Origin: a virus
Taxonomy: Duplodnaviria; Caudoviricetes
IMG/VR virus record: IMGVR_UViG_3300028767_000071
Span: 1 to 31,139 of that record
Reading direction: 5' to 3' (one strand)
DNA length: 31,139 nt
Shown: positions 6,186 to 31,139 of the stretch, piece by piece
Layout of the letters: each line of letters starts with the position of its first letter
Numbering within the stretch: position 1 is the first letter of the stretch
Translations under genes and position numbers: made by a program
Notes under the pieces: model-generated
Seen by the model: the letters and a program-made list of their open reading frames with translations, nothing else
Told to the model about the DNA's origin: nothing
Database searches by the model: none

Positions 6186-6212
6186 TTCACGAATATACCT
6201 TTTTGAACTAAC
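6186..6212 (+). repeat. array left-end sequence TTCACGAATATACCTTTTTGAACTAAC, copy 1
   Basis: Exact 27-bp match to 27334-27360. Confidence 0.95.
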
Positions 6213-6332
6213 ATTGTAGCATACACGCAGTAAGGGTTTAAATGGTACTTCCCTATCTGTCAGCGATAAATTTACAAGTACCTATAATGTTGGCAAACCA
6301 GTGCTACCCTTATTGCCGGGTATGCGAAGTTA
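6209..6332. repeat. attC-like hairpin H1
   Basis: TAAC..116 bp..GTTA; arms GCATACACGCAGTAAGGGT / ACCCTTATTGCCGGGTATGC. Confidence 0.85.
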
Positions 6333-6353
6333 TTGCCAGTTTACATTTCAGTC

Positions 6354-6935
6354 ATGTTTGAAGATTTAAAAGAAGATTTTATTGTCGAATTTGGAGAGGA
6401 AAACTTTAAAAAAATTGAGTCTATTTTAGACTTATTTGAAAGCGAACCTTTTTGCGATTTTGAAAAAGACGGAATTACTGTTTCGTGTAGCCGTGAAAAG
6501 ATAAATCAACTGCAAGAAAATGTATGTGTTTCTATTTCGTGCGATGATTTTGACATTGAATTACTTTATGAAAATGGGATCAACGCAGGAACCAGATTGA
6601 ATGAGTATAGAATAAATCCAGCATCTTCATTTGTTAATGATAAACGCGAATACGAAGTAATTACAGGTATTGAATTGGATATTGATGCTATAGATAGATG
6701 GAGTGCAATGACTGGTAAAGAATATTCACTCCAAAAAGCTGAATTTATGCTTATCAATAATCGTGATTCAATTTTGAAATTAATCAAAAATCAAAATTAC
6801 GATAATTATGTAACTGGTGGAGGCACGACAAAGACAGACCGCTACTATGATCAGAAAAAGTCTGAATTAAACGAACGTGGTCTTTTTTGGAAAGTCAAAA
6901 CGCGAACAGAAGTAACCACCGCGAACTTTTTTTAA
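6354..6935 (+). CDS. cassette 1 cargo: acidic hypothetical protein
   Basis: ATG 6354 preferred to TTG 6333; flanked by IR GTTATTGCCAGTTTA (6329) / TAAATTGGCAATAAC (6933-6947). Confidence 0.8.
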   Translation: MFEDLKEDFIVEFGEENFKKIESILDLFESEPFCDFEKDGITVSCSREKINQLQENVCVSISCDDFDIELLYENGINAGTRLNEYRINPASSFVNDKREYEVITGIELDIDAIDRWSAMTGKEYSLQKAEFMLINNRDSILKLIKNQNYDNYVTGGGTTKTDRYYDQKKSELNERGLFWKVKTRTEVTTANFF

Positions 6936-6943
6936 ATTGGCAA

Positions 6944-7067
6944 TAACGGTTCGTGTATGGGTAGTGTGGGAGTACGAAGCACTACCCTATCGAATTACAA
7001 ATAACTTAAATACGAGATACAATGATTGAACAACCACAAAAACCCACATTACCTATACACGGTGTTA
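6944..7067. repeat. attC-like hairpin H2
   Basis: TAAC..116 bp..GTTA; 19-bp stem CGTGTATGGGTAGTGTGGG / CCCACATTACCTATACACG with 2 G.T pairs. Confidence 0.9.
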
Positions 7068-8140
7068 TGCACAGGTTTTCTTATCGTTGGACTTTAAAAG
7101 ATGCCAACTTTACAAAGGATAAAGGTAAAGTGTTTAGTTGCTTTGCTTGTGGAGGTGGCTCAACTATGGGTTATAAATTGGCTGGTTTTGATGTGATAGG
7201 ATGCAATGAAATTGACCCTAAAATGATTGAAGCATACAAAGCAAACCACAACCCTAAATATGCTTTTTTAGAACCAATACAGACCTTTAAAATGCGTGAA
7301 GATTTGCCGCAGGAACTTTATGAACTGGATATATTGGACGGTTCACCACCTTGTAGTAGTTTTTCAATGGCTGGTAACCGCGAAAAAGACTGGGGCAAAG
7401 ATAAAGTTTTTAGAGAAGGTCAGGCGATGCAGGTTTTAGATACTTTGTTTTTTGATTTTATTGATTTGGCTAAGAAATTACAGCCAAAAGTTGTGGTTGC
7501 TGAAAATGTAAAAGGCTTGCTTTTAGGCGATGCAATACAGTATGTGAGACAAATATACCGTGAATTTGATTTGGCTGGTTATTATTGCCAACATTGGTTA
7601 TTAGATGCTTCAAAAATGGGTGTACCACAAAGGCGCGAAAGGGTATTTTTTATTGCATTGCGTAAAGATTTGGCAAAACCTTTTTTAAAGCAAATGAACT
7701 TGTTTGATATTTTGCCAGAAATAAAACTGGAATTTAATGAACCTGAAATATGTTTTAAAGAATTTGCAGATTACGAAGGCGAAAATATTACAGAATATGC
7801 AAAAAAAGCATGGGATAACCGAAAATATGGGGATAACAATATTGCAGAAAGTAAAGCAAGATGTGGAATGAAAGTAAGCGATATGAATACAGGCTATGTT
7901 TATGAAGATAAAGTATGCCAAACATTAACTGCAAAAGGTAGGCATGGAAGTTTATTATTTTCAAAACCTATTAGACTTTCAAAGGCTGAATTTTGCAATG
8001 TTGGAACATACCCACAAGATTATGATTTTGCAAAAACTGGATGGGGCTATTTAATTGGAATGAGTGTTCCACCAGTAATGACTGCAAACATAGCGACTGA
8101 AATTTATTTGCAATGGCTCTCAAAGTTGGCACTGTCTTAA
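7022..8140 (+). CDS. cassette 2 cargo: C5-cytosine DNA methyltransferase
   Basis: FACGGG (motif I), SPPC (IV), ENV (VI), QRRER (VIII); start 7022 or 7067; IR GTTATGCACAGGTTT (7064) / AAACTTGTGCATAAC (8139-8153). Confidence 0.95.
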   Translation: MIEQPQKPTLPIHGVMHRFSYRWTLKDANFTKDKGKVFSCFACGGGSTMGYKLAGFDVIGCNEIDPKMIEAYKANHNPKYAFLEPIQTFKMREDLPQELYELDILDGSPPCSSFSMAGNREKDWGKDKVFREGQAMQVLDTLFFDFIDLAKKLQPKVVVAENVKGLLLGDAIQYVRQIYREFDLAGYYCQHWLLDASKMGVPQRRERVFFIALRKDLAKPFLKQMNLFDILPEIKLEFNEPEICFKEFADYEGENITEYAKKAWDNRKYGDNNIAESKARCGMKVSDMNTGYVYEDKVCQTLTAKGRHGSLLFSKPIRLSKAEFCNVGTYPQDYDFAKTGWGYLIGMSVPPVMTANIATEIYLQWLSKLALS

Positions 8141-8187
8141 ACTTGTGCATAACTTGTTTATATCAACAGTTTAATAAATTAAACCAT

Positions 8188-8421
8188 ATGCAACTTACTG
8201 AGTACGAACAAAAAGCAATTCATAAACTCGGACAGGCTATACACGAAGGCCGGTGGAGTAATGCTGGGTTGGTTGAACTTATTAAACTGGAAGGAGATTA
8301 TCTAAATTTAAAGACGATACCCAGATATGCAAAATCTGTTGGAAAGACTTATCCGGGTGTTGTTAAAACGAGAGAAATAACAAATTTATTTGATGTTAAG
8401 TGGATAATTGACAACGATTAG
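8188..8421 (+). CDS. small putative HTH/excisionase-like protein at array right end
   Basis: 77 aa from ATG 8188; paralog of 28710-28943; LKTIPRYAKSVGKTYPGV looks like an HTH. Confidence 0.7.
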   Translation: MQLTEYEQKAIHKLGQAIHEGRWSNAGLVELIKLEGDYLNLKTIPRYAKSVGKTYPGVVKTREITNLFDVKWIIDND

Positions 8422-8464
8422 AAAGGTTCAACAATGGCCGTTTTCAACCTATTAAATTTTCAAC

Positions 8465-9121
8465 ATGAGCAATAAACCGAAACTTTGTAAGTGGACTCTT
8501 GAAAAATGCGATGAAGAAAGAGTAAACTATCCAGGCAAATCTATTCTTTCTCCTTATTGCCATAGTCACTTAATTTCAGCTACCTTGATTAAAGTTAGAT
8601 CCACAAAAGAGCTAAATAAAACTATTCGAGCTAAAAATAAGGAAAACAAAGAAAAAACGATTGAATTACTTACCACTGATAGATACCGGAAAAAATACGT
8701 TCAGCCTATTTTTAATGAAATTGCCAGATTGATAGATTATAATCAGCCATGTATTGCTACCGGAAACTATAAAGGCAAGATGGCCGGAGGACATTACCAT
8801 TCTGTTGGATCTAATCGTACAATTTGCCTAAACCTTCACAATATCCACATTCAGAGTTTTCAAAGTAACGGGCCAAAAGGAGGCGATAATATCAAATATA
8901 GAGAAGGTATCATCAAAACGTATGGATTACACTATTTGGAACAAATTGAGGCTCTATCGTTAATAAAACCGATTAAATTAGACAAATCAGACCTAATGGA
9001 TATTAAAATACATGCATCAGCTATCAAGAAACAGTTAAAAAAGGAATTAAGGGTGAGAACACCGGATGAACGAATTAATTTAAGGGAAGTAATAAACAAT
9101 CAAATTGGAATATATAAATGA
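8465..9121 (+). CDS. ninG: NinG/Rap-family recombination endonuclease
   Basis: IARLIDYNQPCIATG...GGHYHSVG...NIHIQ...N pattern. Confidence 0.8.
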   Translation: MSNKPKLCKWTLEKCDEERVNYPGKSILSPYCHSHLISATLIKVRSTKELNKTIRAKNKENKEKTIELLTTDRYRKKYVQPIFNEIARLIDYNQPCIATGNYKGKMAGGHYHSVGSNRTICLNLHNIHIQSFQSNGPKGGDNIKYREGIIKTYGLHYLEQIEALSLIKPIKLDKSDLMDIKIHASAIKKQLKKELRVRTPDERINLREVINNQIGIYK

Positions 9122-9285
9122 AAATCAAAACTGTCAAATCGTTAATTAAGATATTGGATGAAATCTCAAAAGTTGATAGGGATGAATTGAAAGGAATTAA
9201 GTCAGAAGAACAGTATGATTTAATTGGTGTTGTCCGTTCATCAATTCAAAACGAACTTTCAGAACTCAAAGAATTGTCAAAATGA
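9118..9285 (+). CDS. small hypothetical protein (55 aa)
   Basis: MKIKTVKSLIKILDEISK...; ATGA overlaps on both sides; not in the ORF track. Confidence 0.6.
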   Translation: MKIKTVKSLIKILDEISKVDRDELKGIKSEEQYDLIGVVRSSIQNELSELKELSK

Positions 9286-9479
9286 AAGTCTGGTACTGCA
9301 CCGAGAAGCGTTTCATCAACCGAATCATCAAGCGATGGAAACGGGAAGGATTCAACTACAATGCCGGACACGTTCAGATTTTAACTTTTGCCTTTCGTGC
9401 CGTTCTTTACTGGTCTTCAGTAGAACATCAAAAAGTTTCAGAAACAAACAGATTAAAAAATAACCTTAAACTATTCTAA
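9282..9479 (+). CDS. small hypothetical protein
   Basis: Coupled to both neighbours. Confidence 0.6.
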   Translation: MKVWYCTEKRFINRIIKRWKREGFNYNAGHVQILTFAFRAVLYWSSVEHQKVSETNRLKNNLKLF

Positions 9480-9480
9480 A

Positions 9481-9663
9481 ATGGCAAAGAAAACATTTGC
9501 AGTTCACTTTTGGACTGGATATACAACGAATTTGGGATGTGGAGATATGGTTGTAACACTTTGTGAGAGATATGTTGAAAAACAAAAAAGTCGATTCACT
9601 ATCGATAAAAGTAAAGTTACTTGTAAACTTTGTTTGTCACGACATAAATTTCAAAAGCTATGA
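9481..9663 (+). CDS. small protein, possibly Zn-binding
   Basis: H...C...VTCKLC pattern. Confidence 0.6.
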   Translation: MAKKTFAVHFWTGYTTNLGCGDMVVTLCERYVEKQKSRFTIDKSKVTCKLCLSRHKFQKL

Positions 9664-9878
9664 AGGGTTTAAAACTAATATTTATATCGCAAATTAACCG
9701 GGACGGAAGCGGAACAACTCCGGTTAATCCAGATTATATACGAACTTTAGAGAAAGATGATTTTAATTTAAATTGTCTTTCAATAACAGAAAATACTTAT
9801 ATCGCACACGGTTTTAATTCGTATGTGGTTAAACTAAAAAATGAAAAGCATTGGCCGTTTAAACTTTCAAATAAATGA
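9660..9878 (+). CDS. small hypothetical protein
   Basis: ATGA overlap with the previous ORF. Confidence 0.6.
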   Translation: MKGLKLIFISQINRDGSGTTPVNPDYIRTLEKDDFNLNCLSITENTYIAHGFNSYVVKLKNEKHWPFKLSNK

Positions 9879-9943
9879 AACTTTTTAAATTACCCTTTCG
9901 TATTAATGCCAAGTAAATGATTTTTTTCATACTTTTAGGTTTT

Positions 9944-9987
9944 ACTACCATGTTTTATTTGATTGATTGAGCGTGGTAGTTTTTTTT
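9944..9987 (+). terminator. possible intrinsic terminator
   Basis: ACTACCATG / CGTGGTAGT stem with a large loop, followed by a T run. Confidence 0.45.
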
Positions 9988-10062
9988 AAAAACTTAAGTT
10001 TGTTTTATTCAAAAAGTATTCTGATATTTGTCTTACAAATTAGAAGCACCCATCAGAGAAAG

Positions 10063-10192
10063 GGGAAACTGACTTTATAAAATGTGATTATTGGAGGCCA
10101 TATAAGCTACCGGAAACGCTGTTTGATCCGGGGTAAATAGCGAGGGACAGTCGATGTAATCAAGAATAAAAAAAGTTAGTAGAAGGTTTCCC
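10063..10192 (+). ncRNA. candidate structured RNA
   Basis: ORF-free, GC-richer region with nested complementary segments. Confidence 0.3.
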
Positions 10193-10207
10193 AAAGAATG
10201 TACAGAT

Positions 10208-10240
10208 AAAAGCCCCGGATAACGTGTCCGGGGCTAATTT
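10208..10240. terminator. GC hairpin, probable terminator (U tail on the - strand)
   Basis: AGCCCCGGA-7nt-TCCGGGGCT preceded by an A run. Confidence 0.6.
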
Positions 10241-10315
10241 AAAAGGGTTTAATTTGTGTTTGATCATTGCCGGTACTTCCGGCTAATTTTTACTGAATTT
10301 TTGTTAAATAGTAAC

Positions 10316-10477
10316 ATGAAGAAGATTAAGACAAAAGATATTGATTCAACCAAGCTGATTACAAAATCAGAATATGCAAAACAGATAAAGTCCAACCCTG
10401 TTCAAGTTCAGAGAATGATTGATCAAGGGAAATTGACTGTAGTTGTTGCAAAGGGTGCTGAATTAATACATCTTTAA
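10316..10477 (+). CDS. small HTH DNA-binding protein (excisionase-like)
   Basis: LITKSEYAKQIKSNPVQVQRMIDQGKL; ATG 10316. Confidence 0.65.
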   Translation: MKKIKTKDIDSTKLITKSEYAKQIKSNPVQVQRMIDQGKLTVVVAKGAELIHL

Positions 10478-10545
10478 TTTTTTTGACTTAAATCGTTAAT
10501 TATTAACATTGTAAATATAGTTTTTTAACCATTAAATTTTAACAC

Positions 10546-10971
10546 ATGGGTAAACCATTATTTCAAGACGTACCGGAAGATCGGAGAGTATTAATGTTGT
10601 CTGACAATGCTGAAAGTATCGAAGAAATTGGATACATGAAGCCATTTACCGAAGAAGAGATCCTTTTTATGAAAGATGATCTTGCTGAAGTTTCAATTGA
10701 TATCAATGAGATTGAAATTGAAAAGAAAGAAGTTGCTGCTGAGTTTAAACACAAACTCGAACCTCTCACATAACAGAAAAAATCTATTCTTTTAAAAATC
10801 AAAAACAAAGCTGAACATGTAAAAGAAGAATGCTTCAAGTTTATTGACTATGAAAACCAGATTGTTTCTTACTACAATTCAAAAGGTCTTGAAATCGAAA
10901 CAAGACGAATGAGGCCGGACGAAAAACAGTTGAAAATTTTCCCAATTGGTAAAACGGGAACAAATAATTAA
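10546..10971 (+). pseudogene. phage protein interrupted by in-frame TAA at 10771-10773
   Basis: Frame stays open for 65 more codons to TAA 10969-10971, 2 nt before the next ATG. Confidence 0.75.
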
Positions 10972-10973
10972 TC

Positions 10974-11717
10974 ATGAACACAGAAAAAATTCAGGTAAAT
11001 TTTGCCGAAGGTCAGACCAAAGGTGAAATAGTAATTTGTGAAGTAAAAGAAAGAAATGAACTTAAAGTTAAGGAACCTGTAAGAATCAAACTTTCTGGAA
11101 CCATTGGCGCGCCCGCAGAATTTTTACTAAAGAGAATGGATCAGTTTGACCAGATCAATCAAAAACGCTGTCATATTATCGTTGATCGTGAAGAAATAAG
11201 TATTAAGCTTGTTTTCAATGAAAACGATGAATACAATCGGGGTGAGGTTGTCGGAACACTGGAATCATATCCAAAATTCAAAGAATTTGGAATTAATACC
11301 GGAAAAGTTTGGACACCAACTGCACTTGGATTATTCTTTAAGATGAACAGGGCATTTTTCACTTCTCGAGATGATAACATGAAGCTTGTTTCTGATTTGA
11401 TGAATTTCACCGCTACAGTTAATAGCGGTATCACACGTTCCGTAAAGGAAACAGGTGATAAAACTGATAATTTTGAACAAACAGTCAATTCAAATCTTCC
11501 AAAATCATTCAATATTGTAATTCCAATTTTCAAAGGCGTACCTGCTGAAACAATAGAAGTTGAAACATTTGCACAGATAGATGGCCGTCAGGTTTCATTT
11601 ATACTACTTTCTCCGGGTGCTCAGGCTATTCTTGAAGAAATTCGAGATATAGCAGTTGATGAACAATTAAAGACTATCCGTGAGGCTTGTTCTGATATTG
11701 CAATCATTGAAATTTAA
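10974..11717 (+). CDS. phage hypothetical protein (YfdQ/DUF2303-like, tentative)
   Basis: 247 aa; LPKSFNIVIPIFKG motif. Confidence 0.7.
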   Translation: MNTEKIQVNFAEGQTKGEIVICEVKERNELKVKEPVRIKLSGTIGAPAEFLLKRMDQFDQINQKRCHIIVDREEISIKLVFNENDEYNRGEVVGTLESYPKFKEFGINTGKVWTPTALGLFFKMNRAFFTSRDDNMKLVSDLMNFTATVNSGITRSVKETGDKTDNFEQTVNSNLPKSFNIVIPIFKGVPAETIEVETFAQIDGRQVSFILLSPGAQAILEEIRDIAVDEQLKTIREACSDIAIIEI

Positions 11718-11769
11718 TCCGTTACCAGATATCGGTGGTATCCTTTCAGGTTCGATCCCTGAAACGGAA
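11718..11769 (+). ncRNA. tRNA-like mini-structure (acceptor-like stem plus T arm)
   Basis: TCCGTT/AACGGA stem; T arm TCAGG-TTCGATC-CCTGA. Confidence 0.45.
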
Positions 11770-11787
11770 CTAATAAAAATTAAACTA

Positions 11788-12945
11788 ATGAACTATACTT
11801 TAAGACCATATCAAAGCGAAGCATCCGACAAGGCAATTGAATTTTTTAAGTCAAAGAAGAAACGAAATGCAATAATGGTACTTCCAACGGGTTCGGGTAA
11901 ATCTTTGATAATTGCTGAAATTGCAAATAGACTGAATGATCATGTTTTGATTTTTCAACCTTCAAAGGAAATTTTAGAACAGAATTTTGCTAAACTTCAA
12001 AGTTATGGATTTTGGGATTGTTCGATTTATTCAGCATCCTTCAACTCGAAAGAAATATCAAAGGTAACTTTTGCAATGATTGGAAGCGTCCGAAACAAAC
12101 CTGAATTATTCGCACATTTTAAGTTTGTGATAATTGATGAATGTCATGGAGTTAACGCGAAAGGTGGAATGTATGATGATTTTATTTCAGAACTTGACTG
12201 TAAGGTATTAGGATTAACAGCTACACCTTACCGATTATCTTCAGATGGTTATGGCGGTTCAATCCTAAAATTCATAACCAGGACCCGTCCTCGGATATTT
12301 TCAGAAATGATTTACCACGTCCAGATCAAAGAATTGGCCGACGCTGGTTATTTGGCAAAAATGGAATATTACCAGATCAACATCGTTGATCCTACAAAAT
12401 TACAGGTAAATGCAACCGGTGCAGATTTTACAGACAAATCGGTTCAGAAACATTACAAGGATATTGAGTTTAATCGCAAACTTAAAGAAGTAATTGAAAG
12501 ACTGGTTAAGTCAGGACGGAAAAATATTTTAGTTTTCACTCGATTTGTAGCAGAAGCACAGGAATTATCAGACTATTTTAATGGACTAGCTGAAATGGTT
12601 TCCGGGGAAACACCTAAAAAGGAACGTGAAAGGATATTGAATGATTTCAAATCAGGTTATATTAGAATAGTTACCAATGTCGGGGTTCTTACTACGGGTT
12701 TTGACTTTCCTGAATTGGCCACAATTGTACTGGCGCGCCCTACAATGTCACTTGCTTTGTACTATCAAATGATTGGCCGGGCAATGAGACCGCACAAATC
12801 AAAATCAAGCGCGTGGATCGTTGATTTGTGTCAGACATATAAACGGTTCGGAAAAGTGGAGCAATTGGAACTGCGGGCAGAAAAATCGGGTATTTGGGCT
12901 ATTTTTAGCGGAAATAAACAACTAACGAATAAATACTATGAGTAA
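11788..12945 (+). CDS. SF2 DEAD/DEAH-box helicase (RadD/YejH-like)
   Basis: LRPYQ, PTGSGKS, DECH, TATP, TTGFD, QMIGRAMR. Confidence 0.95.
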   Translation: MNYTLRPYQSEASDKAIEFFKSKKKRNAIMVLPTGSGKSLIIAEIANRLNDHVLIFQPSKEILEQNFAKLQSYGFWDCSIYSASFNSKEISKVTFAMIGSVRNKPELFAHFKFVIIDECHGVNAKGGMYDDFISELDCKVLGLTATPYRLSSDGYGGSILKFITRTRPRIFSEMIYHVQIKELADAGYLAKMEYYQINIVDPTKLQVNATGADFTDKSVQKHYKDIEFNRKLKEVIERLVKSGRKNILVFTRFVAEAQELSDYFNGLAEMVSGETPKKERERILNDFKSGYIRIVTNVGVLTTGFDFPELATIVLARPTMSLALYYQMIGRAMRPHKSKSSAWIVDLCQTYKRFGKVEQLELRAEKSGIWAIFSGNKQLTNKYYE

Positions 12946-14150: not shown

Positions 14151-14180
14151 AAGAACCAGATATATTTTAAATTTGAACTT

Positions 14181-14191: not shown

Positions 14192-14265
14192 TAACGGGCA
14201 AAGTTTATACGGGCTGCAAAGCTCGAAAACCACGGTTGCCTGACTTGCCGGGTTAGCCAAAGTTA
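14192..14265. repeat. truncated attC-like element H3
   Basis: TAAC..66 bp..GTTA; right half resembles H6, left arm missing. Confidence 0.6.
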
Positions 14266-14304
14266 TTTGCCGTATTTCATTACTAATCACTAAAATAAAT
14301 AAAG

Positions 14305-14652
14305 ATGTCAGTAAAAATTTATTCAAGTTTCAACATGGGTGGGATGCCAACCCTTGAATATTCGATTAACATTAATGGGATTTCAATTGGTATTAAAAAA
14401 GAAGATTTTGACTCTTTAGTTAAAGAACTAGGAACTTCAATATCTGAAGATTTGGAAAAAGCAAAGTCAGTGAAAGAAAGCTACTGGAAAAATGTAGAGA
14501 AGTTGCAAGAACTAAGGAAAGAAATAATATCTATTTTCTGGGATGGAGAGCCTGATGACGATTATCTATTTAAAAAAGAGTCAAAGGAAATTGATCAAGA
14601 AAAGCTTTTCGAGATTTTGGAAAAGCACAATCGCTTCTTAGGATTCGAATAA
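14305..14652 (+). CDS. cassette 3 cargo: hypothetical protein
   Basis: IR GTTATTTGCCGTATT (14262) / AATATGGCATATAAC (14651-14665). Confidence 0.8.
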   Translation: MSVKIYSSFNMGGMPTLEYSININGISIGIKKEDFDSLVKELGTSISEDLEKAKSVKESYWKNVEKLQELRKEIISIFWDGEPDDDYLFKKESKEIDQEKLFEILEKHNRFLGFE

Positions 14653-14661
14653 TATGGCATA

Positions 14662-14786
14662 TAACGTAGGAAGCTACACGCAGTTTGGGATTACGAGCGA
14701 AAGCCTGTCAAGCCCCGACAGCGTAAATACGAAAAGAAAGCCTTGAATAACTTTCATACGCCCAAATTGACGGGTAGCTGAAGTTA
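14662..14786. repeat. attC-like hairpin H4
   Basis: TAAC..117 bp..GTTA; arms GCTACACGCAGTTTGGG / CCCAAATTGACGGGTAGC. Confidence 0.85.
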
Positions 14787-14838
14787 GTGGTTAGTGCTTT
14801 CATAGTCAAATATTTAAAACTAATTAATAATCAATAAA

Positions 14839-15228
14839 ATGTCAACAGAAACACATCAAATTACAGTCGCAAAATGCGAAGAAGAAGAACTCGACAATGT
14901 AAGAACGTATCTACAAGAACTTGAACAAGTTGTCAACGAGAATGACGGTTACGATGAAGATGATTCTGAAGTGAATAAAGAAATTGCTGATGTAGCAAGA
15001 AAATATCCAAACAGAGCTTTCATCGTTCCATTGAATTTAGGAATCCTTCTCGACAACTACCAGGATAAAGACTCAGATATTTTGAAGCATCCAAAGTGGA
15101 TAATGAATCTTTTCAATGTCCTCGAAGAAATTGACGAATATCTGTCAAGTAACCCGAAAAACTATGTCGGTAGCGGGTCAATTCTGCACACTAAAATAAA
15201 GAACTGTCTGTCGAAAGATGCGAAATAG
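14839..15228 (+). CDS. cassette 4 cargo: acidic hypothetical protein
   Basis: IR GTTAGTGGTTAGTGCT (14783) / AGCATTACCACTAAC (15227-15241). Confidence 0.8.
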   Translation: MSTETHQITVAKCEEEELDNVRTYLQELEQVVNENDGYDEDDSEVNKEIADVARKYPNRAFIVPLNLGILLDNYQDKDSDILKHPKWIMNLFNVLEEIDEYLSSNPKNYVGSGSILHTKIKNCLSKDAK

Positions 15229-15237
15229 CATTACCAC

Positions 15238-15361
15238 TAACGTTTCCGCTATGCGTAGTGCGGGATTACGTGGTACGCACTATCAAACTACGCAAAGCCT
15301 ACGAGCGAGGCAGGACGCTCGATATTACGAATAACCCCGCATTACGTATGAGCGGGTGTTG
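15238..15361. repeat. attC-like hairpin H5
   Basis: TAAC..116 bp..GTTG; arms CGCTATGCGTAGTGCGGG / CCCGCATTACGTATGAGCG. Confidence 0.9.
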
Positions 15362-15385
15362 TACGCCGTTTTTATTCTTAAAACT

Positions 15386-17569
15386 ATGGATTATACTCAA
15401 TTTTTAAACACAAAACACAAAAGCATTATTCATTCAGGATTTGAAATAAATGAAACTAAATTAAATCCGATGCTTTTCGATTTTCAGAGGTTTACCGTAA
15501 AACGTGCTTTAAAGGCTGGTAAATATGCGATTTTTGCTGATACTGGACAAGGCAAAACTCCAATGCAGTTAGATATTGCGAACCAAGTTTTTAAATACAC
15601 AAATGAACCAGTTTTAATTTTAGCACCTTTGGCAGTAACAGGGCAAACAATTGAACAGGGATTGAAATTTGGAATAGAAGTAAAAAGGCTTTCGGGAAAT
15701 ATACAGATAGCCAATTATGAGCAAATTGATAACATAGATTGTAGTTTGTACGGTTGCATAATTTTAGATGAAAGTTCGATTTTAAAAAATGAAACAGGAA
15801 AATATAGAAATTTACTTATTGAAAAGTTCAAAAAAACACCTTACAAATACTGCTTTTCAGCTACACCAAGCCCAAACGACCCTATGGAATTAGGAAACCA
15901 TGCAGAATTTTTAGACGTTATGGGATTTTCAGAAATGCTTGCAATGTATTTTGTACATGATGCTGGAGAAACGCAAAAATGGAGACTTAAAGGGCATGCA
16001 GTTGAACGATTCTATGAGTTTGTTAGTTCATGGGCAATTATGTATTCGCACCCAAGGGATATAGGATTTGAAATGAATGGATTTGATTTGCCCGAACTTT
16101 CGATAATTGAAAAACAGGTTGCAACTACATTACCGGAAGGTATGCTATTTTCGGGATTGGCTGTAAATGCTACCGATTACAATTCAAGTTTACGAGAAAC
16201 AGAATTAGAACGCATTAACCAAACTTTAGAAATTGTTAAAAGTATTGGATTTAACGAACCGATAATTATTTGGACAAAGCAAAATGATGAAGCAAAAAAC
16301 ATATACAACCATTTAAAATTGCTTGGTTATGATTGCCGAAACGTGCAAGGTTCAGATTCAAATGAAAAGAAAGAAGCTGATTTATTAGGATTCGGGCATA
16401 ATGAATTTCAAATACTTATTACAAAACAATCAATTGCAAGTCAAGGATTGAATTACCAAAATTGCGCTTATCAGATATTTAATTCAGTTGATTTTAGCTT
16501 TGAACAAAGCTACCAAGCCATGAGGCGTTCATGGAGGTTTGGACAAAAAAGAAAAGTAACATGCTGGATGATAACAACCGACAGAATGATAAATGTTATT
16601 AAAATACAGCAAGATAAACACCTTTCATTTAAAACTATGCAAAGTGAAATGACGAAGGCAGTTAATAAAAATTTACTTAACCAAATAACAACTAAAAACA
16701 TGAATAGTGAAGATGTTAAAACAGAATTTTACCATTTAATGCGTGGGGATTGTGTTGAAAAATCAAAAGAAGTTGAAGAAAATAAATCGGATTTGATTAT
16801 ATTTTCGCCTCCATTTAGCGAACTTTACACATATTCGAGTCATGTTGAAGATATGGGCAATTCAGCAAACTATAACCAATTCGAGCAACATTTTAAATTC
16901 TTAATTCCTGAACTAAAAAGGATTTTAAAACCTGGGCGTATTTGTGCTATTCATTGCATGGATTTACCAATACAAAAAGGAAAAGAAGGATATATTGGTT
17001 TAAGGGACTTTTCGGGAATGTTGATTAAATGGTTTCAGGATTGCGGATTTATTTATCACAGTCGGGCAACAATATGGAAAGACCCTGTAATTGAAATGCA
17101 GCGAACTAAAGCACTTGGATTGCTGCATAAACAAGTAAAAAAAGATAGTGTAATGAGCCGTGTTGGAATACCTGACTATATTTTATTTTTTAGAAATGAA
17201 GGCGAAAATACAATACCAATTACAAATACAAATATACCAGTTGATTTGTGGCAAAAAATAGCTTCGCCAGTTTGGTATGATATTGATTATTCAAGAACTC
17301 TGAATTATAGAGAAGGTAGGGCGCAAGATGACGAGAAACATATTTGCCCGCTTCAACTTGATACGATTGAAAGAGTAATATTGCTTTATTCAAATGAAGG
17401 CGAAACGATTTTCAGCCCTTTCGGAGGAATTGGCAGCGAAGGTTATCAAGCGTTGAAAATGAACCGTAAAAGCATTTCAATTGAGCTTAAAGAAAGCTAT
17501 TTTGAATTGAATAAACGAAACCACAATGCAGCCAAAGAAGAAAAAGGACAATTAAAATTAGCATGGTAG
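15386..17569 (+). CDS. cassette 5 cargo: SNF2-like helicase fused to an N4/N6 (beta-class) DNA methyltransferase
   Basis: DTGQGKT, DESS, SATP, RRSWRFGQ; then FSPPF and SPFGGIGS; IR GTTGTACGCCGTTT (15358) / AAATGGCGTACAAC (17594-17607). Confidence 0.9.
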   Translation: MDYTQFLNTKHKSIIHSGFEINETKLNPMLFDFQRFTVKRALKAGKYAIFADTGQGKTPMQLDIANQVFKYTNEPVLILAPLAVTGQTIEQGLKFGIEVKRLSGNIQIANYEQIDNIDCSLYGCIILDESSILKNETGKYRNLLIEKFKKTPYKYCFSATPSPNDPMELGNHAEFLDVMGFSEMLAMYFVHDAGETQKWRLKGHAVERFYEFVSSWAIMYSHPRDIGFEMNGFDLPELSIIEKQVATTLPEGMLFSGLAVNATDYNSSLRETELERINQTLEIVKSIGFNEPIIIWTKQNDEAKNIYNHLKLLGYDCRNVQGSDSNEKKEADLLGFGHNEFQILITKQSIASQGLNYQNCAYQIFNSVDFSFEQSYQAMRRSWRFGQKRKVTCWMITTDRMINVIKIQQDKHLSFKTMQSEMTKAVNKNLLNQITTKNMNSEDVKTEFYHLMRGDCVEKSKEVEENKSDLIIFSPPFSELYTYSSHVEDMGNSANYNQFEQHFKFLIPELKRILKPGRICAIHCMDLPIQKGKEGYIGLRDFSGMLIKWFQDCGFIYHSRATIWKDPVIEMQRTKALGLLHKQVKKDSVMSRVGIPDYILFFRNEGENTIPITNTNIPVDLWQKIASPVWYDIDYSRTLNYREGRAQDDEKHICPLQLDTIERVILLYSNEGETIFSPFGGIGSEGYQALKMNRKSISIELKESYFELNKRNHNAAKEEKGQLKLAW

Positions 17570-17651
17570 AATGCTAAATCGAAGCACGTCTTTAAATGGC
17601 GTACAACTTGTAAATATCCGCAACTAAATAGTCAAAATACCAATAAATTTA

Positions 17652-17891
17652 ATGATTTTAGAAATAAAATATAGGTATAAGGGATTTGATTATTTAGTTG
17701 CCGATTCGGATGGTAACTTGTATTTAACACCTCATTTTCGTTACCGGCGCACAGTATATTTTAAGAAAATTGAGCCGTTTAAAAATGGCATTAATAAAAA
17801 GAAAACAATTAAATATCACGGTGCAAATGTTTCGTTTGCACAATTAAGAAAACGAAAAATTGAAGTTAATGAGGTAATTGAAGTTTACTAA
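17652..17891 (+). CDS. small basic protein at the right end of array 2
   Basis: 79 aa ORF, convergent with the endolysin. Confidence 0.65.
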   Translation: MILEIKYRYKGFDYLVADSDGNLYLTPHFRYRRTVYFKKIEPFKNGINKKKTIKYHGANVSFAQLRKRKIEVNEVIEVY

Positions 17892-23224: not shown

Positions 23225-23298
23225 GATTGATGATTATTTAATGTTAAAAAAACACTATAAAAGTAAATATATTTTTTAAAGTATGTTATAAAGCACTA

Positions 23299-24647: not shown

Positions 24648-24648
24648 A

Positions 24649-25329
24649 TCAATTTTTTATTAAAATGTATCCTGAAATTAATTCGCCGGTTCCAGAAAAT
24701 AACACAGAATCTATTAATCCGTCAATTGAAGAAAGCGTTAACTGCGGATCAATAGGAAGTCTGGAATATTTACCTGCTTCAACAAATTGCCAGACTTCAA
24801 ACTGAGGATTTTGGCCGTAGTCCTGCATCGGGTTAAAAGAAACATTGTTTGAGTCTTCCAATGATTCTCTATAATTTGAAATTTCTGGGCTATAAACATC
24901 TGTAAATTCTATTCTCCGCCCGTTTGGATCATTGCCCCAAAGAACTGACATTGAAAATTTATTGTTATTGCTGACCGCAATTGGATGAAGTCTATAAAGT
25001 AGTTCGGTAGGAAGTAAAATAGAATATCCCTTATAAGCTGACTTGTGAACTATTCCCATTTTACCGGAAGTCGGGCAACCCTGTTTAAAAACGTCACTTA
25101 CTAATATCGTACCAACTCCGGTAGAAATAACTAAGTAAGGAACTCCGACAAAATCAGTGAAAGCGTAATCAGCATCTTTGAGATTAGCCCCAATATTATT
25201 GGTGTCAATTGCATTTACCTTTATTCCGTACGTTGCTGCGGTTAAAGGTGTTTCCCTGTCAATCTGATAAACTGATTGAGCAATTGTAAACCACGCCGAA
25301 GATGTATTATATTTCGATAAATCACTCAT
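24649..25329 (-). CDS. putative structural protein
   Basis: 226 aa, tightly packed in the operon. Confidence 0.75.
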   Translation of the reverse strand: MSDLSKYNTSSAWFTIAQSVYQIDRETPLTAATYGIKVNAIDTNNIGANLKDADYAFTDFVGVPYLVISTGVGTILVSDVFKQGCPTSGKMGIVHKSAYKGYSILLPTELLYRLHPIAVSNNNKFSMSVLWGNDPNGRRIEFTDVYSPEISNYRESLEDSNNVSFNPMQDYGQNPQFEVWQFVEAGKYSRLPIDPQLTLSSIDGLIDSVLFSGTGELISGYILIKN

Positions 25330-25331
25330 TT

Positions 25332-26009
25332 TTAGTTAAATATTAGTTCTACCCTCATAGGTAGCGGATTAGGTGCAAAACCTTCTATTAGCACTGTTAA
25401 ACCATTTCCTACAACTCCCGTATAAGCAGTTCCACGATCAAAGCTCAACATACGTTCAGCCGAACCGTTGATTTCAAATACTTTTATATCAACTATCTTT
25501 CTTCCGGTTAAATTATGAGTTACAAGTAAGTTGTAAGTATCATCAACCTCCAATGTCCATCCGGTAGGGTAGTCTGTTGTTTCAATTGCGGCGGATATTC
25601 TGGTTGCAACACTTCCAGAAGATGAAGTAAAGTTAATAGTATAAGGATTTTGTTTAAGTTTTAATAAGTCTTGAATAATTATATAGAGGGCGTTTGCAAA
25701 TCCCATAACTTCTGCGAGTGCATCCTCTACATTTTCAGCGTCAAAAATTCCGGCCAAATCAGCAAGCGTTACATCTTCTGCCTTGACGGTTGCAGGAAAT
25801 GTAACAGGTTCTAATGTTGTACAATCTGCTTTAAACCAATAAAGTTGATCAACAATAATTAAAGGCATAAATTTATGTCTTAATCCTATGTCAATTCCCG
25901 CCAACGCCTCAGCCTCCGAAGCCCACGGAACATTGTTATTTAGATATGCTTCCTGGATTGGTCTTCCGGTAGTTGATTTAAAACCTATGTCAATTGGTAT
26001 TCCTATCAT
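25332..26009 (-). CDS. putative tail/fibre protein
   Basis: AENVEDALAEV resembles phage fibre helical motifs. Confidence 0.75.
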   Translation of the reverse strand: MIGIPIDIGFKSTTGRPIQEAYLNNNVPWASEAEALAGIDIGLRHKFMPLIIVDQLYWFKADCTTLEPVTFPATVKAEDVTLADLAGIFDAENVEDALAEVMGFANALYIIIQDLLKLKQNPYTINFTSSSGSVATRISAAIETTDYPTGWTLEVDDTYNLLVTHNLTGRKIVDIKVFEINGSAERMLSFDRGTAYTGVVGNGLTVLIEGFAPNPLPMRVELIFN

Positions 26010-26026
26010 TGCTTAAAATTTATAGC

Positions 26027-27238
26027 TTAAAATTTATAGGTTAAAGTTAATAATGTTGCTGGTTCAGGTGCATAAGTTATAGGACAAACAAAAGTGTAAA
26101 TGTTCATTAATACACTGTTTGATCCAAAAGTAAAAGTCGCCTGTGTTTTTTCAAATGCACTCATAAGATCGTAAACGTTCCACATTAAAATACTTGATAG
26201 TTCCCCGAATGATGCAGGATAAGCAAAACAGTTTCGGGTTCCAAGTTCGTTATAATACTGGATTGTTGTATCTTCTTTAACGGCTAATAACTCAGTCATT
26301 GCCTTGACTTCTGATTCATAAGGCGGGTTATTTGTCACAGCACCGACATACATTTTAGTAGTGATATCCGGAATAATCGGATTTGATTCAATGATACCTA
26401 AATTATCAACATTAATACCGATAGCGTTCTTTTGTGATAGCTTCAGGGTTGCCTGAAAAGATGTTGAGTTTCCAAATAAAGTAGGGTCTATTTCACTTTT
26501 CTTAATATACTGAATACTATTAACTGTAAATAAATCCAAATTGCTTACCATCCCTATTTTAGCTATCATGTAATCCGGCACTGCTGCAATTTTCAATACT
26601 TTTCCTGTGTAGTATGATGCTGAAAGAATAGTATTGCTTTGTGAACCTTCGAGCACTTCTGATTTATCAATGTCGTTTACTTCTACATCCATCGCCTCGA
26701 TATAAAAATCAAGATAATTCCCGGTATTTGCCAATACAGACCAATCTATGAATCTATTATCTAAGTCTGATTCAATCCTATCAAGGTTTGAATATTTTAT
26801 GTATTTGATAGTTCCTTTGTTTATCTGTTCTGTCAAATCTGTGACTAAAACAGGTTCGCTGGTTAATACATCTGAACCCTGTATAGCGGTAAAATAGATA
26901 TGTTTGTCGAAGTAGTCAGAATCTAAAGTAACAACAAAATTAGTATAATACCTCATATTTGTTGATCCGTAATGCGAAGTATAACCAGCCGAAATACTTT
27001 CAATTTGTGTGATTATAGGAAGTTTATAAAATGATTTAAGTGTAATTGTCGCGTCTGTATCTGATTCAAATTGCAAGTAAAGTACATGGTTTTTATTAAA
27101 CTTTTGAAAATATGGAATTATCAAATTATTAGAGTGTTTTCGATCCGCATGTAGTGTATTCCACATATTTGGAAATTCAGTCGGATAGGTTGCCAACTTT
27201 TTAAATGTGACGCTATTTAATATTGAACTTGATATCAT
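26027..27238 (-). CDS. putative tail protein
   Basis: 403 aa in the late operon. Confidence 0.75.
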   Translation of the reverse strand: MISSSILNSVTFKKLATYPTEFPNMWNTLHADRKHSNNLIIPYFQKFNKNHVLYLQFESDTDATITLKSFYKLPIITQIESISAGYTSHYGSTNMRYYTNFVVTLDSDYFDKHIYFTAIQGSDVLTSEPVLVTDLTEQINKGTIKYIKYSNLDRIESDLDNRFIDWSVLANTGNYLDFYIEAMDVEVNDIDKSEVLEGSQSNTILSASYYTGKVLKIAAVPDYMIAKIGMVSNLDLFTVNSIQYIKKSEIDPTLFGNSTSFQATLKLSQKNAIGINVDNLGIIESNPIIPDITTKMYVGAVTNNPPYESEVKAMTELLAVKEDTTIQYYNELGTRNCFAYPASFGELSSILMWNVYDLMSAFEKTQATFTFGSNSVLMNIYTFVCPITYAPEPATLLTLTYKF

Positions 27239-27333
27239 TATCGAATGTTTTCACAAATTTATAAAATGTTTTCAAACATACGTTTATATTTGATAGTTAT
27301 TTTTATTGGTAGTAAATTGCAGACTTAAAATTC

Positions 27334-27360
27334 TTCACGAATATACCTTTTTGAACTAAC
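27334..27360 (+). repeat. array left-end sequence, copy 2
   Basis: Exact 27-bp match to 6186-6212. Confidence 0.95.
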
Positions 27361-27484
27361 GCTCGAGTGCTATGTGCAGGGCTGGATTTCGGGCGGTGTC
27401 CGTTATTTGTCAGCGATGCAGCCCGGGCGGAAAGGTAAGGCTCGAAAATCAGAACTGCCAGACTTGACACATAGCATCAAGTTA
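27357..27484. repeat. attC-like hairpin H6
   Basis: TAAC..120 bp..GTTA; arms TGCTATGTGCAGGGCTGG / CCAGACTTGACACATAGCA. Confidence 0.85.
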
Positions 27485-27512
27485 TTTGCCGTTTTTAATT
27501 AAATCCAATACG

Positions 27513-27887
27513 ATGAAACAAATACAATTCAAAGACATTTCAGTCAAAATTTATACAGATGCAGTCGAATATACTAACGACTGGTTTGGAATGCCTGAAG
27601 GCGCAATCTTAGACAAAAGTTCTGTTCCTGAAAGTGCGGGAATGGCAGATATTATAGGAAAAGAAATTGCAATTTTTACTACAAAACTTTGCTCTTTCGA
27701 CGACTTGTTATCTACCGTTGCTCACGAATTAGGACACTTGGTAGAAAATGGGTTTAAAAAGAATCCACCACAAAAACCACGATACGAAAAACGTCACGAA
27801 CTAAAAGCAGAACATTATGAGTCTTTCACAATTGATTCATATAGACTGTCACGCCAGATTTACGGACTCACGTTCAGCGAGCTTTAA
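27513..27887 (+). CDS. cassette 6 cargo: small HExxH zinc-metallopeptidase-like protein
   Basis: TVAHELGH plus a downstream E; IR GTTATTTGCCGTTTT (27481) / AAAATGGCAATATAAC (27886-27901). Confidence 0.75.
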   Translation: MKQIQFKDISVKIYTDAVEYTNDWFGMPEGAILDKSSVPESAGMADIIGKEIAIFTTKLCSFDDLLSTVAHELGHLVENGFKKNPPQKPRYEKRHELKAEHYESFTIDSYRLSRQIYGLTFSEL

Positions 27888-27897
27888 AATGGCAATA

Positions 27898-28021
27898 TAA
27901 CGGTGGTGGTATGAAATCGGTTGGGATTTCGAAGTACAACCATGTCAAGTTACAAAACACTTGCTACGGGCTACCAAGTTTGACAAACCACTAAAACCCA
28001 ACTGTTTTATACCACGTGTTA
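27898..28021. repeat. attC-like hairpin H7
   Basis: TAAC..116 bp..GTTA; arms GTGGTATGAAATCGGTTGGG / CCCAACTGTTTTATACCAC. Confidence 0.9.
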
Positions 28022-28058
28022 TACACAGGCATTTATTTAAAATTCAAATAATTACAAA

Positions 28059-28655
28059 ATGAAAACAATTAAAAACGACTATTGTATAAGACAATTTGTA
28101 AGCAGCGATACATTAAGACCTGCAATGACTAAAGTAAATTTACAGGATGGATATTTATATTCTACCGATGCCCATATAGTTGGGAAAATAAAAGCGGATT
28201 TGTGTGTTCAAAATTATACTGCTATTGAAAAATACCCAAATGCAGAAAAAGTAATTGAGGAACATGAATCGGTTGAAAAGAAAACAGTAAGCGTTGATAC
28301 TCTTTTTAACGACTTAATGAAAATTGAGTGCTGTTTTAAACCTAAAATGATTGATTGCGACAAATGCGATGGTGATGGCGTATATGTTTGCGACCATTGT
28401 AATTCTGAATGTGATTGCAAAGAATGTGGTGGAACTGGGCAAGTAGCAGGCAAAGAACTTGAATTAACAAGCGAACATGATTGCGTTTTATTTAATAAAA
28501 AATACAAACTGAATTATTTGGATTTAATTATTAAAACCGCAGTTTATACAGGCGTTAAAGAGATTGAAATTTCAAACGGTACTCACGAAACTTCGGTAAC
28601 TATTTTCACGGTTGGCGATTTCACTATTTTATTAATGCCGTGCTATCGTAGGTAG
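28059..28655 (+). CDS. cassette 7 cargo: beta-clamp-like protein with inserted CxxCxGxG zinc finger
   Basis: DTLRPAMTKV...STDAH, KYPN and C-terminal LLMP resemble DnaN; CDKCDGDG, CDHC, CKECGGTG; IR GTTATACACAGGCAT (28018) / ATGCTTGTGTATAAC (28663-28677). Confidence 0.7.
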   Translation: MKTIKNDYCIRQFVSSDTLRPAMTKVNLQDGYLYSTDAHIVGKIKADLCVQNYTAIEKYPNAEKVIEEHESVEKKTVSVDTLFNDLMKIECCFKPKMIDCDKCDGDGVYVCDHCNSECDCKECGGTGQVAGKELELTSEHDCVLFNKKYKLNYLDLIIKTAVYTGVKEIEISNGTHETSVTIFTVGDFTILLMPCYRR

Positions 28656-28709
28656 ACTCTTTATGCTTGTGTATAACTTATAAATATCAACAGTTTAAAA
28701 AATTAAACT

Positions 28710-28943
28710 ATGTGCCAATTATCATAATATGAAAAACTTGCTTTACACAAATTGGGTGAAAGTATTCATAAAGGTAAATGGAGCAACGAAGGTTTGGTTA
28801 AACTTATTGAACTGGGTTCAGACTATCTTAATCCACTTTCTATTCAGGAATATGCAGACAGTAGGAAAATAAGCTATCAGGCAGCAAGAAAGCATAAACA
28901 AACTATTTTATTAAGACAAAAATTTATTATTGACAATGATTAG
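28710..28943 (+). pseudogene. paralog of 8188-8421 with in-frame TAA at 28725-28727
   Basis: MCQLS*YEKLALHKLGESIHKGKWSNEGLV aligns with MQLTEYEQKAIHKLGQAIHEGRWSNAGLV; both end IIDND. Confidence 0.8.
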
Positions 28944-28970
28944 AAAGGTTCACATAGGGCCGTTGTTTAA

Positions 28971-31139
28971 CTACACTACAATAGGTTTGTATTTTTCAAC
29001 TATTGTTATTTCAGCTTCATCCTTACCGATTGACATATCAATATTATATAAATAACCTTGTACCGAATTACCGTCTATATCTATTCCGAAATCCATCCAA
29101 CCATACAAATTATCTTGAAGAACCTGTAAATCTGCATAAATAAACATGCAAGTAACTTTGTGCTTCATAGGTAAAATTATAGGATCGGATAATGTAGAAA
29201 CTGGTATATCCTGATTTTCAGTAATCGCATATTCATCAAAACCGGACTGAGGGGTTCCCAGTGTTCTTAAGTTTTGTTGCTTGTCTGATGTTTGAAACTT
29301 CAATGTAGTACCGGAAAAATACGGTTTTTCGAGTGCAGACTTTAAATTAGGTTGACGCTTCAACATTCGCGAAGGTGTAAAGTATCTATTTAATAAATCT
29401 TCACGAAAAACGCTTGATTCTTTCAGTATCGTAATATTTTCGTCTCGTTCTGGTTTCCATTCATATCCATCCGCCTGAGTCTTAGTAATGAAAATATCAG
29501 AATCTTGCTTAGTATCGGTTGTGTCAATCGGCGTTGCTAAACTTGAAAGTATTCCTTTTGTGTCACCTCTGTAAGATGCAATATTTTCTAATTTGGTAGC
29601 AGTATTCAGTATTGTAGTTCTTTCAATTGTCGTGTTTGGTTCTGCAAGTCCGTTAATTTCAAGATACTCATATTTATCAAAACCTGATTTAATGTTACTA
29701 GGTGCGTATTCAATCATAACCTGTGACTCAATATCATATTTATTGAATCTAGATTTAAGTGGCGGGTTAAATATTATTTCATCTTCATCAGCACTTTTAA
29801 AGAAGTCTGAATATTTTTCAATTCTTAATCTTAGTGTTCCTTCAATTATCTCAAATGAATAACCTAGACCCCATATAGCACTAGCAGTCTTAAACAGGTC
29901 TTTGAAATTGACAGCAAGCGGTAAATCAGCAAGTGTTAACCCCCGTAAGTTTAAACCATTTTGTATATGTGCAAAAGACAATTGATTTTCGGTCAAATAT
30001 TTTACACCATCTGCATAACTTAAATTCTGACGGCCAAAAAAATCAGAATAAAAAGGATATTGAGTGTCAAAAATGTGTTGTGATAATCTTTCAAAAGTCT
30101 CGTAAATTGGCCAACCTTCAACTTTTCGCGCTGGCGAAGTGATAATGTCCTGAGAAAATGAAATCATACTTTCGTCACTACTGTCGCTATAAAATCCGGC
30201 TTTTATTCCTGAAATATCACCAGTTTTTACAACTAATCGCAAACTTTGACCTTTTTTCAAGTCAATAGTTGTCGAATCGTCTATTAATAGGTCTTCGGTA
30301 TCATTGCCGAAAGTAGCTAGTTCGATTTCATCAAAAATAACCTCTGCAAGATCGGAAACGACAAACATCAACGTCCACGGTGCAGTAGGGTTATTATCGT
30401 TAGTAATCCAAAAATGGAAAGTATATTTTACCGTCAATGTCCTATCAAACTCTGAACTTTCAAGTATTTTTGGTACTGCGGAGATATTTATAATTCTGTT
30501 TGTAAACTTAACGGCTTGAACATCTCCGACAAAGTCGTTTTTCTGAACGTCAAAAGGAAGTGAGGCATAACAATTGAATCCTTTTACGCGGGGCAAATCG
30601 TAAAGTATTCCATTTTGAACGGGTGTTTTTAGTTCGGCATAAAATCGCTGGTTAGTTGCCTGGTAATTTATGAATTTTTTATCTCCAAGTGGTCTATCTA
30701 AAATATTATAATCGCCTATTGAAACAAGTTTATTCAAGTCAACGTTAGTATCCTGACGTTGATCCAGTTTAGTTTGCATCGAACTATTAACGGCTTTTAC
30801 CCTAATTCCAAAAGAGAACCCTCCAATTTTAACTTTCTGATAGAAATTAAAGTCAATGTTATAGGTAGATGGAAATTCAATGTATTTTCTGCCTTTTTCG
30901 GGGTCAACAAAATCAAACTCTTTCCACCAATACTGCACTAATGTACATTTTGCATTAAATCCAAAAGTCATATATAAATCCTTAAGCATTTTTGCAGCAT
31001 TTCCGACAAACGTCAATGTATCGGCGTTGGATGAAACGAATACACCTCCAGCTTCTAAGTCACGTTTGATATTGATCTTTCCAGATGCCCACTCACATGG
31101 TTCTGTGTCGCAAATTAATTCTTCAGTATTACTTATCAG
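28971..31139 (-). CDS. large putative tail protein, 5' end outside the window
   Basis: Frame remains open from 31016 to the window edge; late-operon context. Confidence 0.8.
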   Translation of the reverse strand: MISNTEELICDTEPCEWASGKINIKRDLEAGGVFVSSNADTLTFVGNAAKMLKDLYMTFGFNAKCTLVQYWWKEFDFVDPEKGRKYIEFPSTYNIDFNFYQKVKIGGFSFGIRVKAVNSSMQTKLDQRQDTNVDLNKLVSIGDYNILDRPLGDKKFINYQATNQRFYAELKTPVQNGILYDLPRVKGFNCYASLPFDVQKNDFVGDVQAVKFTNRIINISAVPKILESSEFDRTLTVKYTFHFWITNDNNPTAPWTLMFVVSDLAEVIFDEIELATFGNDTEDLLIDDSTTIDLKKGQSLRLVVKTGDISGIKAGFYSDSSDESMISFSQDIITSPARKVEGWPIYETFERLSQHIFDTQYPFYSDFFGRQNLSYADGVKYLTENQLSFAHIQNGLNLRGLTLADLPLAVNFKDLFKTASAIWGLGYSFEIIEGTLRLRIEKYSDFFKSADEDEIIFNPPLKSRFNKYDIESQVMIEYAPSNIKSGFDKYEYLEINGLAEPNTTIERTTILNTATKLENIASYRGDTKGILSSLATPIDTTDTKQDSDIFITKTQADGYEWKPERDENITILKESSVFREDLLNRYFTPSRMLKRQPNLKSALEKPYFSGTTLKFQTSDKQQNLRTLGTPQSGFDEYAITENQDIPVSTLSDPIILPMKHKVTCMFIYADLQVLQDNLYGWMDFGIDIDGNSVQGYLYNIDMSIGKDEAEITIVEKYKPIVV

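Follow-up and report, generated by a model that had tools for sequence, protein, structure and literature searches.

Three gene-cassette arrays with hairpin sites and attI-like docks in a Bacteroidota-type phage, with a compact tyrosine recombinase other than IntI as the probable shuffling enzyme

The stretch of DNA examined here, referred to as the window, comprises 31,139 nucleotides of a tailed phage (Caudoviricetes; IMG/VR record IMGVR_UViG_3300028767_000071), in which seven genes lie in three rows, each gene held between an arm starting with GTTR and an arm ending in YAAC and preceded by a spacer that can form a hairpin. The three rows are very probably mobile cassette arrays bounded at AAC, likely shuffled by a compact tyrosine recombinase that is not IntI and that would be borrowed from a Bacteroidota host or a co-infecting phage. 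The system is integron-like in its working, but by two tested features it is not an IntI integron; nor is it special to the window phage, being present in Bacteroidota phages and chromosomes alike.

A unit consists of a hairpin, a GTT arm, a gene and an arm ending in AAC, with the hairpin mostly travelling with the gene downstream of it. All seven arm pairs listed in the initial annotation are present at the coordinates claimed, the spacers have the lengths given (116, 116, 66, 117, 116, 120 and 116 nt), and in five of the seven units the stop codon falls inside the right arm or directly at it (open reading frame (ORF) ends 6935, 8140, 14652, 15228 and 27887). The complementarity joins the two ends of one gene, as had been claimed: over 16 nt without gaps the arms of cassettes 1 to 7 match at 14, 14, 13, 10, 13, 11 and 14 positions, and with one gap all seven reach 13–14 of 16, compared with 6–9 across a spacer in the four comparisons possible. 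The arms are imperfect, carrying a fixed G-T wobble at position 11–12, and taken alone they exceed chance only modestly; of the window's 6463 candidate pairs, four match at 14/16 (three of them claimed) and five at 13/16 (two claimed). The description of the spacers as imperfect stems also held, as the six full ones align and covary at 9 of 15 pairs. On the + strand, stems of the form AAC-(108–125 nt)-GTT that reach a score of 39, a threshold chosen after the window scores had been seen, number six, against a mean of 0.03 (maximum 1) in 60 shuffles, whilst the spacers folded as linear sequences give weak z-scores (-0.1 to -2.9, + strand). Single bulges occur in some spacers (uncounted), the conserved irregularities being G-T pairs. 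The attribution to an attC core failed, with RYYYAAC in 0/7 and GTTRRRY in 0/7 of the window units. An Rfam scan of the window and of array-rich loci returned only tRNAs and weak unrelated matches; no family fits the spacers, and there is no match to Flavo-1 (RF01705), which had been suggested for comparison.

A model built from the six full spacers recovers more sites in other phages and in all four metagenome-assembled genomes (MAGs) tested. With this phage's own loci and duplicates removed, and three missed window sites added manually, a custom strict detector gave 291 sites, distributed over 98 of the 247 loci (numbered L below) fetched for comparison, a proportion that is no prevalence figure because the loci were fetched via array-linked genes. 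In 81 distinct sites, 95% of the stem cells are paired and both-side changes are seen at all 15 pairs, with a G-T pair at the inner position in 74 of the 81, the alignment having been fitted to the model. The outer arms of 106 units are paired at positions 1–9 in 96–100%, and 80 of them have a T-G wobble at position 11. Arms of the same gene match at 8.2 of 11 positions versus 4.1 across the spacer (n = 131 units, p = 8e-21). At the core only AAC and GTTR are kept, GTTRRRY being found in 27 of the 291 sites; different hairpins are only 55% alike, and the loop shows no constraint on its sequence, with lengths between about 40 and 125 nt. An ATG whose frame continues beyond GTT is present in 97 of 216 full-length hairpins.

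The claim that the cassettes are individually mobile, with breakpoints at AAC, was borne out both by cassettes 2 and 7 in unrelated phages and by the arrays of cultured phages. Among 46 Flavobacterium records, 11 cultured Baltic Flavobacterium phages have a common dock at which 9–14 units each were detected, belonging to 32 types, some of them composites from missed sites. At this dock units are gained, lost and reordered: the far units are common, the near-dock units differ and several types change place. Of the distinct alignment ends inside these arrays, which are non-independent events, 172 of 283 fall at AAC, where about 3% would be expected by chance.

Within the window, the hairpin and gene of cassette 2 recur at 90–92% identity between unrelated flanks in L191, L194, L195 and L244, the likeness beginning at 6943, 6944, 6944 and 6935, respectively, that is, at the AAC before the hairpin. 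It ends at 8153–8164 in L191, L192, L193, L195, L196 and L223, beyond which different docks or hairpins follow, and phage tooticki6-1 matches 7061–8154. A further 79 relatives of cassette 2 were fetched, mostly without a detected site; the gene family is therefore only partly cassette-borne. Cassette 7 is found in four unrelated phage contexts at 82–93% identity, with likeness ending at 28677 (L184, L185), at 28692 (a similar dock being next) or at 28672 (a fused variant), and beginning at 27897 in L186; one phage with a relative of this cassette has the recombinase described below plus an array of its own. Another array, L269, holds a relative of cassette 6, for which identities of 87.5% and 91% were recorded. 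Cassettes 1, 3 and 4 had no match among the matches listed in general comparisons, no dedicated search having been made for each, and the initial breakpoint tests on distant loci had only 6 and 2 usable cases. Three arrangements are recorded beside these. The hairpin before cassette 7 in L184 (~2950–2965) has shrunk so far that AAC and GTT are a mere 4 nt apart, a sign of a possible inner-arm crossover. In L132 (1848–2018) and L144 (6617–6788), hairpin, arm and leader are 94% alike up to the start codon and are followed by different genes, a hint of how new cassettes arise. In L183 (~1830–3630), the loops of hairpins apparently contain genes, and cassette 7 has its right arm joined directly to the GTT arm that follows.

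After its last AAC each of the three arrays has a dock that was overlooked at first, composed of AAC, 5 nt and a TATA-like motif. Arrays 1 and 3 run on from the dock into a small gene of 77 aa, which marks such arrays in other phages: a dock-type motif was seen by eye shortly upstream of it in 15 of 15 distinct other loci, and hairpins lie upstream in 12 of 14 loci tested. In other phages (54 loci) a tyrosine recombinase of 267 aa replaces the small gene at the dock. The dock motif stands upstream of the recombinase gene in nearly all of 47 loci listed, and of the 32 loci with enough room, 29 have same-strand hairpins upstream (102 sites, as compared to one downstream and none on the opposite strand). 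Five of the 47 contigs end at the (C)TAAC of the dock, as expected from the varying content upstream of it. Chromosomal relatives of the enzyme, of about 350–390 aa, are found beside the same dock and arrays, and in the family of the MAG G026 a relative is present in 18 of 61 genomes, mostly as a longer protein.

At the place of the IntI4 insertion the linked enzyme is shorter by about 48 residues, and scores against the IntI family TIGR02249 (cut-off 265) are 117–162 for four phage proteins and 188–216 for five host proteins. The best solved-structure and family matches are to simple Xer-type recombinases (XerA, XerC/D), with XerC/XerD family scores of 148–196 bits versus cut-offs of 330–335. 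No match to the 267-aa protein at E 1e-50 was found among 50,697 phage records, and PF00589 was matched in one of 22 other array-bearing records and in none of the six Baltic Flavobacterium phage genomes tested. As most array phages have no PF00589 match, the enzyme would for most of them have to come from outside. The recombinases beside hairpins in the MAG contigs L103 and L105 were dropped as candidates, the gene in L105 being followed by an IS91-type transposase ORF (judged by eye); in L103 (2698–2720), L105 (511–530) and L178 such recombinase elements start directly after GTTGAAC at the hairpin 3' end and may target hairpin sites. The recombinase of a prophage-like array in L100 (7531–8334) has a premature stop after residue 228.

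The ORF of a unit is on the strand with the wobbles in 119 of 124 phage units, including those of the window, and opposite to it in 14 of 14 units on contigs labelled host by the analyst. In integrons the cassette ORFs lie opposite to the strand that folds, and the site follows the gene. If the wobble strand is folded and cut at the 5' AAC, the layout would equal that of attC bottom strands, so that hosts would have the textbook gene direction and phages would carry their cargo reversed, likely for read-through from the upstream phage operon. Enzyme activity, circles and single-strand chemistry are parts of the scheme that we infer from these patterns. The gene-coding strand would fold when single-stranded. 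Once a unit was cut out as a circle, the arms from either side of its gene would close the hairpin into a two-armed site around a short spacer, each arm bearing a G-T wobble towards its outer end. Cutting by the enzyme would then occur at AAC, and the circle would be inserted at the dock; new cassettes would therefore be dock-proximal, with old ones eroding at the far end. The likely benefit would be that DNA methyltransferases could be swapped rapidly to counter restriction by the host.

The window belongs to a Bacteroidota-type phage whose recognised genes are RecT, YqaJ, NinG, a helicase, an endolysin and a virion protein. Record G001 (47,965 bp, rated 93% complete) is identical to the window across the stretches compared and adds terminase, portal, capsid and tail ORFs (assigned by eye). 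The search for a recombinase in the rest of the phage matched none: PF00589 (tyrosine recombinase; E 1) and PF00239 (serine recombinase; E 0.1) had zero matches in this 48-kb record. DNA of the phage is contained in peat metagenome runs, and Prolixibacteraceae are represented by one named relative of the 77-aa small gene and three MAG contigs carrying it. An exact search for the left flank of the arrays as an empty site gave five loci, all of the same phage; the 403-aa gene adjoining array 3 had no relative in the phage collection, and the empty structural operon could therefore not be shown. The features of the three arrays are collected in Table 1.

Table 1. Coordinates of flanks, cassettes, docks and adjoining genes of the three arrays in the window (H1–H7, hairpins)
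Feature	Position	Strand	Description
Left flank, array 1	6186–6212	+	Ends in AAC; 27 bp identical to left flank of array 3
Cassette 1	6213–6947	+	H1 6213–6328; left arm from 6329; right arm ending AAC
Cassette 1 ORF	6333–6935	+	200 aa, no known family
Cassette 2	6948–8153	+	H2 6948–7063; C5 cytosine methyltransferase ORF 7022–8140
Dock 1, attI-like	8151–8187	+	AAC, 5 nt, TATA-like motif, then small-gene leader
Small gene	8188–8421	+	77 aa; no Pfam/PHROG family; weak helix-turn-helix lead only
Cassette 3	14196–14665	+	H3 truncated (66 nt, 5' stem lost); 115-aa ORF; most distant from array 2 dock
Cassette 4	14666–15241	+	H4 14666–14782; 129-aa ORF, no known family
Cassette 5	15242–17607	+	H5 15242–15357; helicase / N6/N4 DNA methyltransferase fusion 15356–17569
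Dock 2, attI-like	17605–17625	+	Then unrelated 79-aa ORF 17652–17891
Left flank, array 3	27334–27360	+	Identical to 6186–6212
Cassette 6	27361–27901	+	H6 27361–27480; 133-aa ORF
Cassette 7	27902–28677	+	H7 27902–28017; 198-aa cysteine-rich ORF (phrog_37414)
Dock 3, attI-like	28675–28709	+	
Small gene, copy 2	28710–28943	+	Interrupted by early stop codon

Methyltransferases make up two of the seven window cassettes. In cassette 2 the first ATG of the methyltransferase (region 7022–7070) lies inside the loop of H2, so that the N-terminus of the protein is encoded by the 3' stem, and in cassette 5 the helicase part is of SNF2 type, with matches also in Flavobacterium columnare phages. Methyltransferase homologs without cassette ends are present in L041, L009, L064 and L065, the last three being relatives of cassette 5; the cargo therefore exists as ordinary phage genes too. 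The whole of array 3, including dock and small gene (27334–28973), is antisense to the two structural-region genes on the minus strand that flank it, and ends at the stop codon of the 681-aa virion gene. While the left flanks of arrays 1 and 3 are identical over 27 bp, their right platforms are only 71–82% alike; the platform likeness stops near a further YAAC (~8448 and ~28970).

Several observations weigh against a mobile array system with a borrowed enzyme. Every other record of the phage is identical to the window, with no variation seen within the lineage, and in four runs, represented by assembled contigs with thin cover, neither a circle junction nor an empty-site joint was seen (one joint was unrelated). 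As the record is rated 93% complete, a recombinase could be encoded in the remaining part. The link between enzyme and array, although likely, is drawn from gene neighbourhood, and a dock-like motif is near the stop in only 8 of 17 full-length chromosomal relatives of the enzyme (other strand, 32–122 nt). In the Baltic arrays, 21 of the 283 alignment ends are near GTT and 90 are elsewhere. Hairpins do not always keep to their genes: relatives of cassette 2 carry different hairpins (54–68% in most), the hairpin after cassette 6 in L269 resembles H7 yet precedes a different gene, and L098 and L101 have a common hairpin with different flanks. The stability bias towards the wobble strand (242 of 291 sites) is partly circular, since strands were assigned by the wobble letters. 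RecT, YqaJ and NinG could, moreover, use the repeats for homologous exchange.

This last point leads to a reading in which hairpins and arms are conserved boundaries, such as RNA leaders or terminators, between which genes are swapped by RecT/YqaJ homologous recombination. G-T pairs would fit RNA as well as DNA, the start of the methyltransferase ORF in H2 and the ATG frames running past GTT in so many hairpins (97/216) would suit a leader, both RecT and YqaJ are in the window, and most array phages are without a tyrosine recombinase match. Homologous exchange is hard to reconcile with hairpins that are barely more than half alike (55%) and with breaks within a few bases of AAC, however, and pairing of a gene's two ends with each other would have no role in a linear RNA leader. 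Host cassettes keep the wobble strand but carry their genes opposite to it, and the recombinase is tightly linked; this explanation is highly improbable. An equally poor prospect is that the units are ordinary integron cassettes, that is, clusters of attC sites lacking integron integrases (CALINs), whose attC sites have diverged and which a canonical IntI encoded elsewhere would move. The AAC/GTT cores, the same-gene complementarity and the array layout do fit integrons, phage CALINs have been published (PMC9892861, as far as its available part goes), and the linked enzyme matches TIGR02249, although below cut-off. The core GTTRRRY is nevertheless absent from all seven window units and rare among all sites (27/291), the wobbles are fixed, and the enzyme at the dock side is about 48 residues short at the very place of the IntI4 insertion. 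A hairpin of the same shape, P12002L_attC1, failed when tested with IntI1 and attI1 (PMC9892861, same part).

A different kind of doubt is whether the cassettes, while real, are inert leftovers imported as blocks, the docks of the window phage being no longer used. The absence of variation among its records, the truncated H3 together with one broken copy of the small gene, and the common flanks of arrays 1 and 3, as after block duplication, would all be expected of leftovers. On the other hand, relatives of cassette 2 at 90–92% retain an intact hairpin and ends, arrays 1 and 3 carry different cassettes at related docks, and active-looking turnover is seen in cultured phages that also lack a recombinase, making inertness rather unlikely. 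As this alternative concerns present activity only, it is compatible with shuffling by a compact non-IntI recombinase.

In comparison with integrons, shared features of the arrays described here are the rows of single-gene units, the AAC/GTT core, a site that would be fully paired only in the circle, and a dock adjoining the gene of a tyrosine recombinase, with variation greatest near the dock. The differences are an enzyme without the IntI insertion and below the TIGR02249 cut-off, a GTTR core in place of GTTRRRY, fixed G-T wobbles, phage genes that point to the dock and would lie on the folded strand, and a loop that can hold a start codon. According to the part of PMC8138268 available, integrons cannot function without the insertion, even though the subgroup concerned does not conserve it completely. 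The initial annotation did not recognise several dispersed arrays in one phage, with no intI beside them, as a described arrangement, and the phage record indeed has no recombinase match. As such, attC-like clusters without an integrase in phages are published (PMC9892861, in the portion available, as for the statements that follow). Those phage CALINs also have methyltransferase cargo, and one of their sites, P12002L_attC1, is a short hairpin of the same shape as those described here. Of the six sites assayed with IntI1 it alone gave no recombination; P12002L_attC2, which worked, is on the opposite strand just behind an array end. The sites are treated there as IntI substrates, and that portion of the paper mentions neither a dock nor a polarity nor any other enzyme.

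The enzyme is Xer-like in its best structure and family matches, and two arms around a short spacer are also the layout of dif, but it differs from Xer in scoring under the XerC/D cut-offs, in standing beside variable arrays and in having a hairpin as one partner site. Like Flavo-1 (RF01705), the hairpins are a structured intergenic repeat of Bacteroidota; they have no Rfam match in the window or the array-rich loci, however, and the published alignment rows look different. The available parts of the Flavo-1 papers (PMC9723704, PMC2864571) point to a separate motif, and a survey of miniature inverted-repeat transposable elements (PMC11602168) contains nothing on these sites in the part at hand. 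No description of the present system was found in the literature searched, most subscription papers lying outside it. For the Baltic phages, 15 methyltransferase types have been reported, and lower plating efficiency has been tied to a missing methyltransferase (PMC7077304, part of the text); the words 'cassette' and 'integron' are absent from its main text in the form available.

Taken as a whole, we lean towards a second cassette-capture system beside integrons, in which a small non-IntI recombinase would read G-T wobbles in folded DNA and in which phages without a recombinase would keep docks, borrow the enzyme, reshuffle anti-restriction genes and thereby tune their host range. The cultured Baltic Flavobacterium phages carry such arrays, making the system directly testable. 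If true, cassette shuffling on folded DNA would not need the IntI insertion, and Bacteroidota would have a cassette system that may escape searches designed for integrons. Part of phage mosaicism would then have a site-specific cause, and host and phage would draw on related cassette pools for defence and counter-defence.

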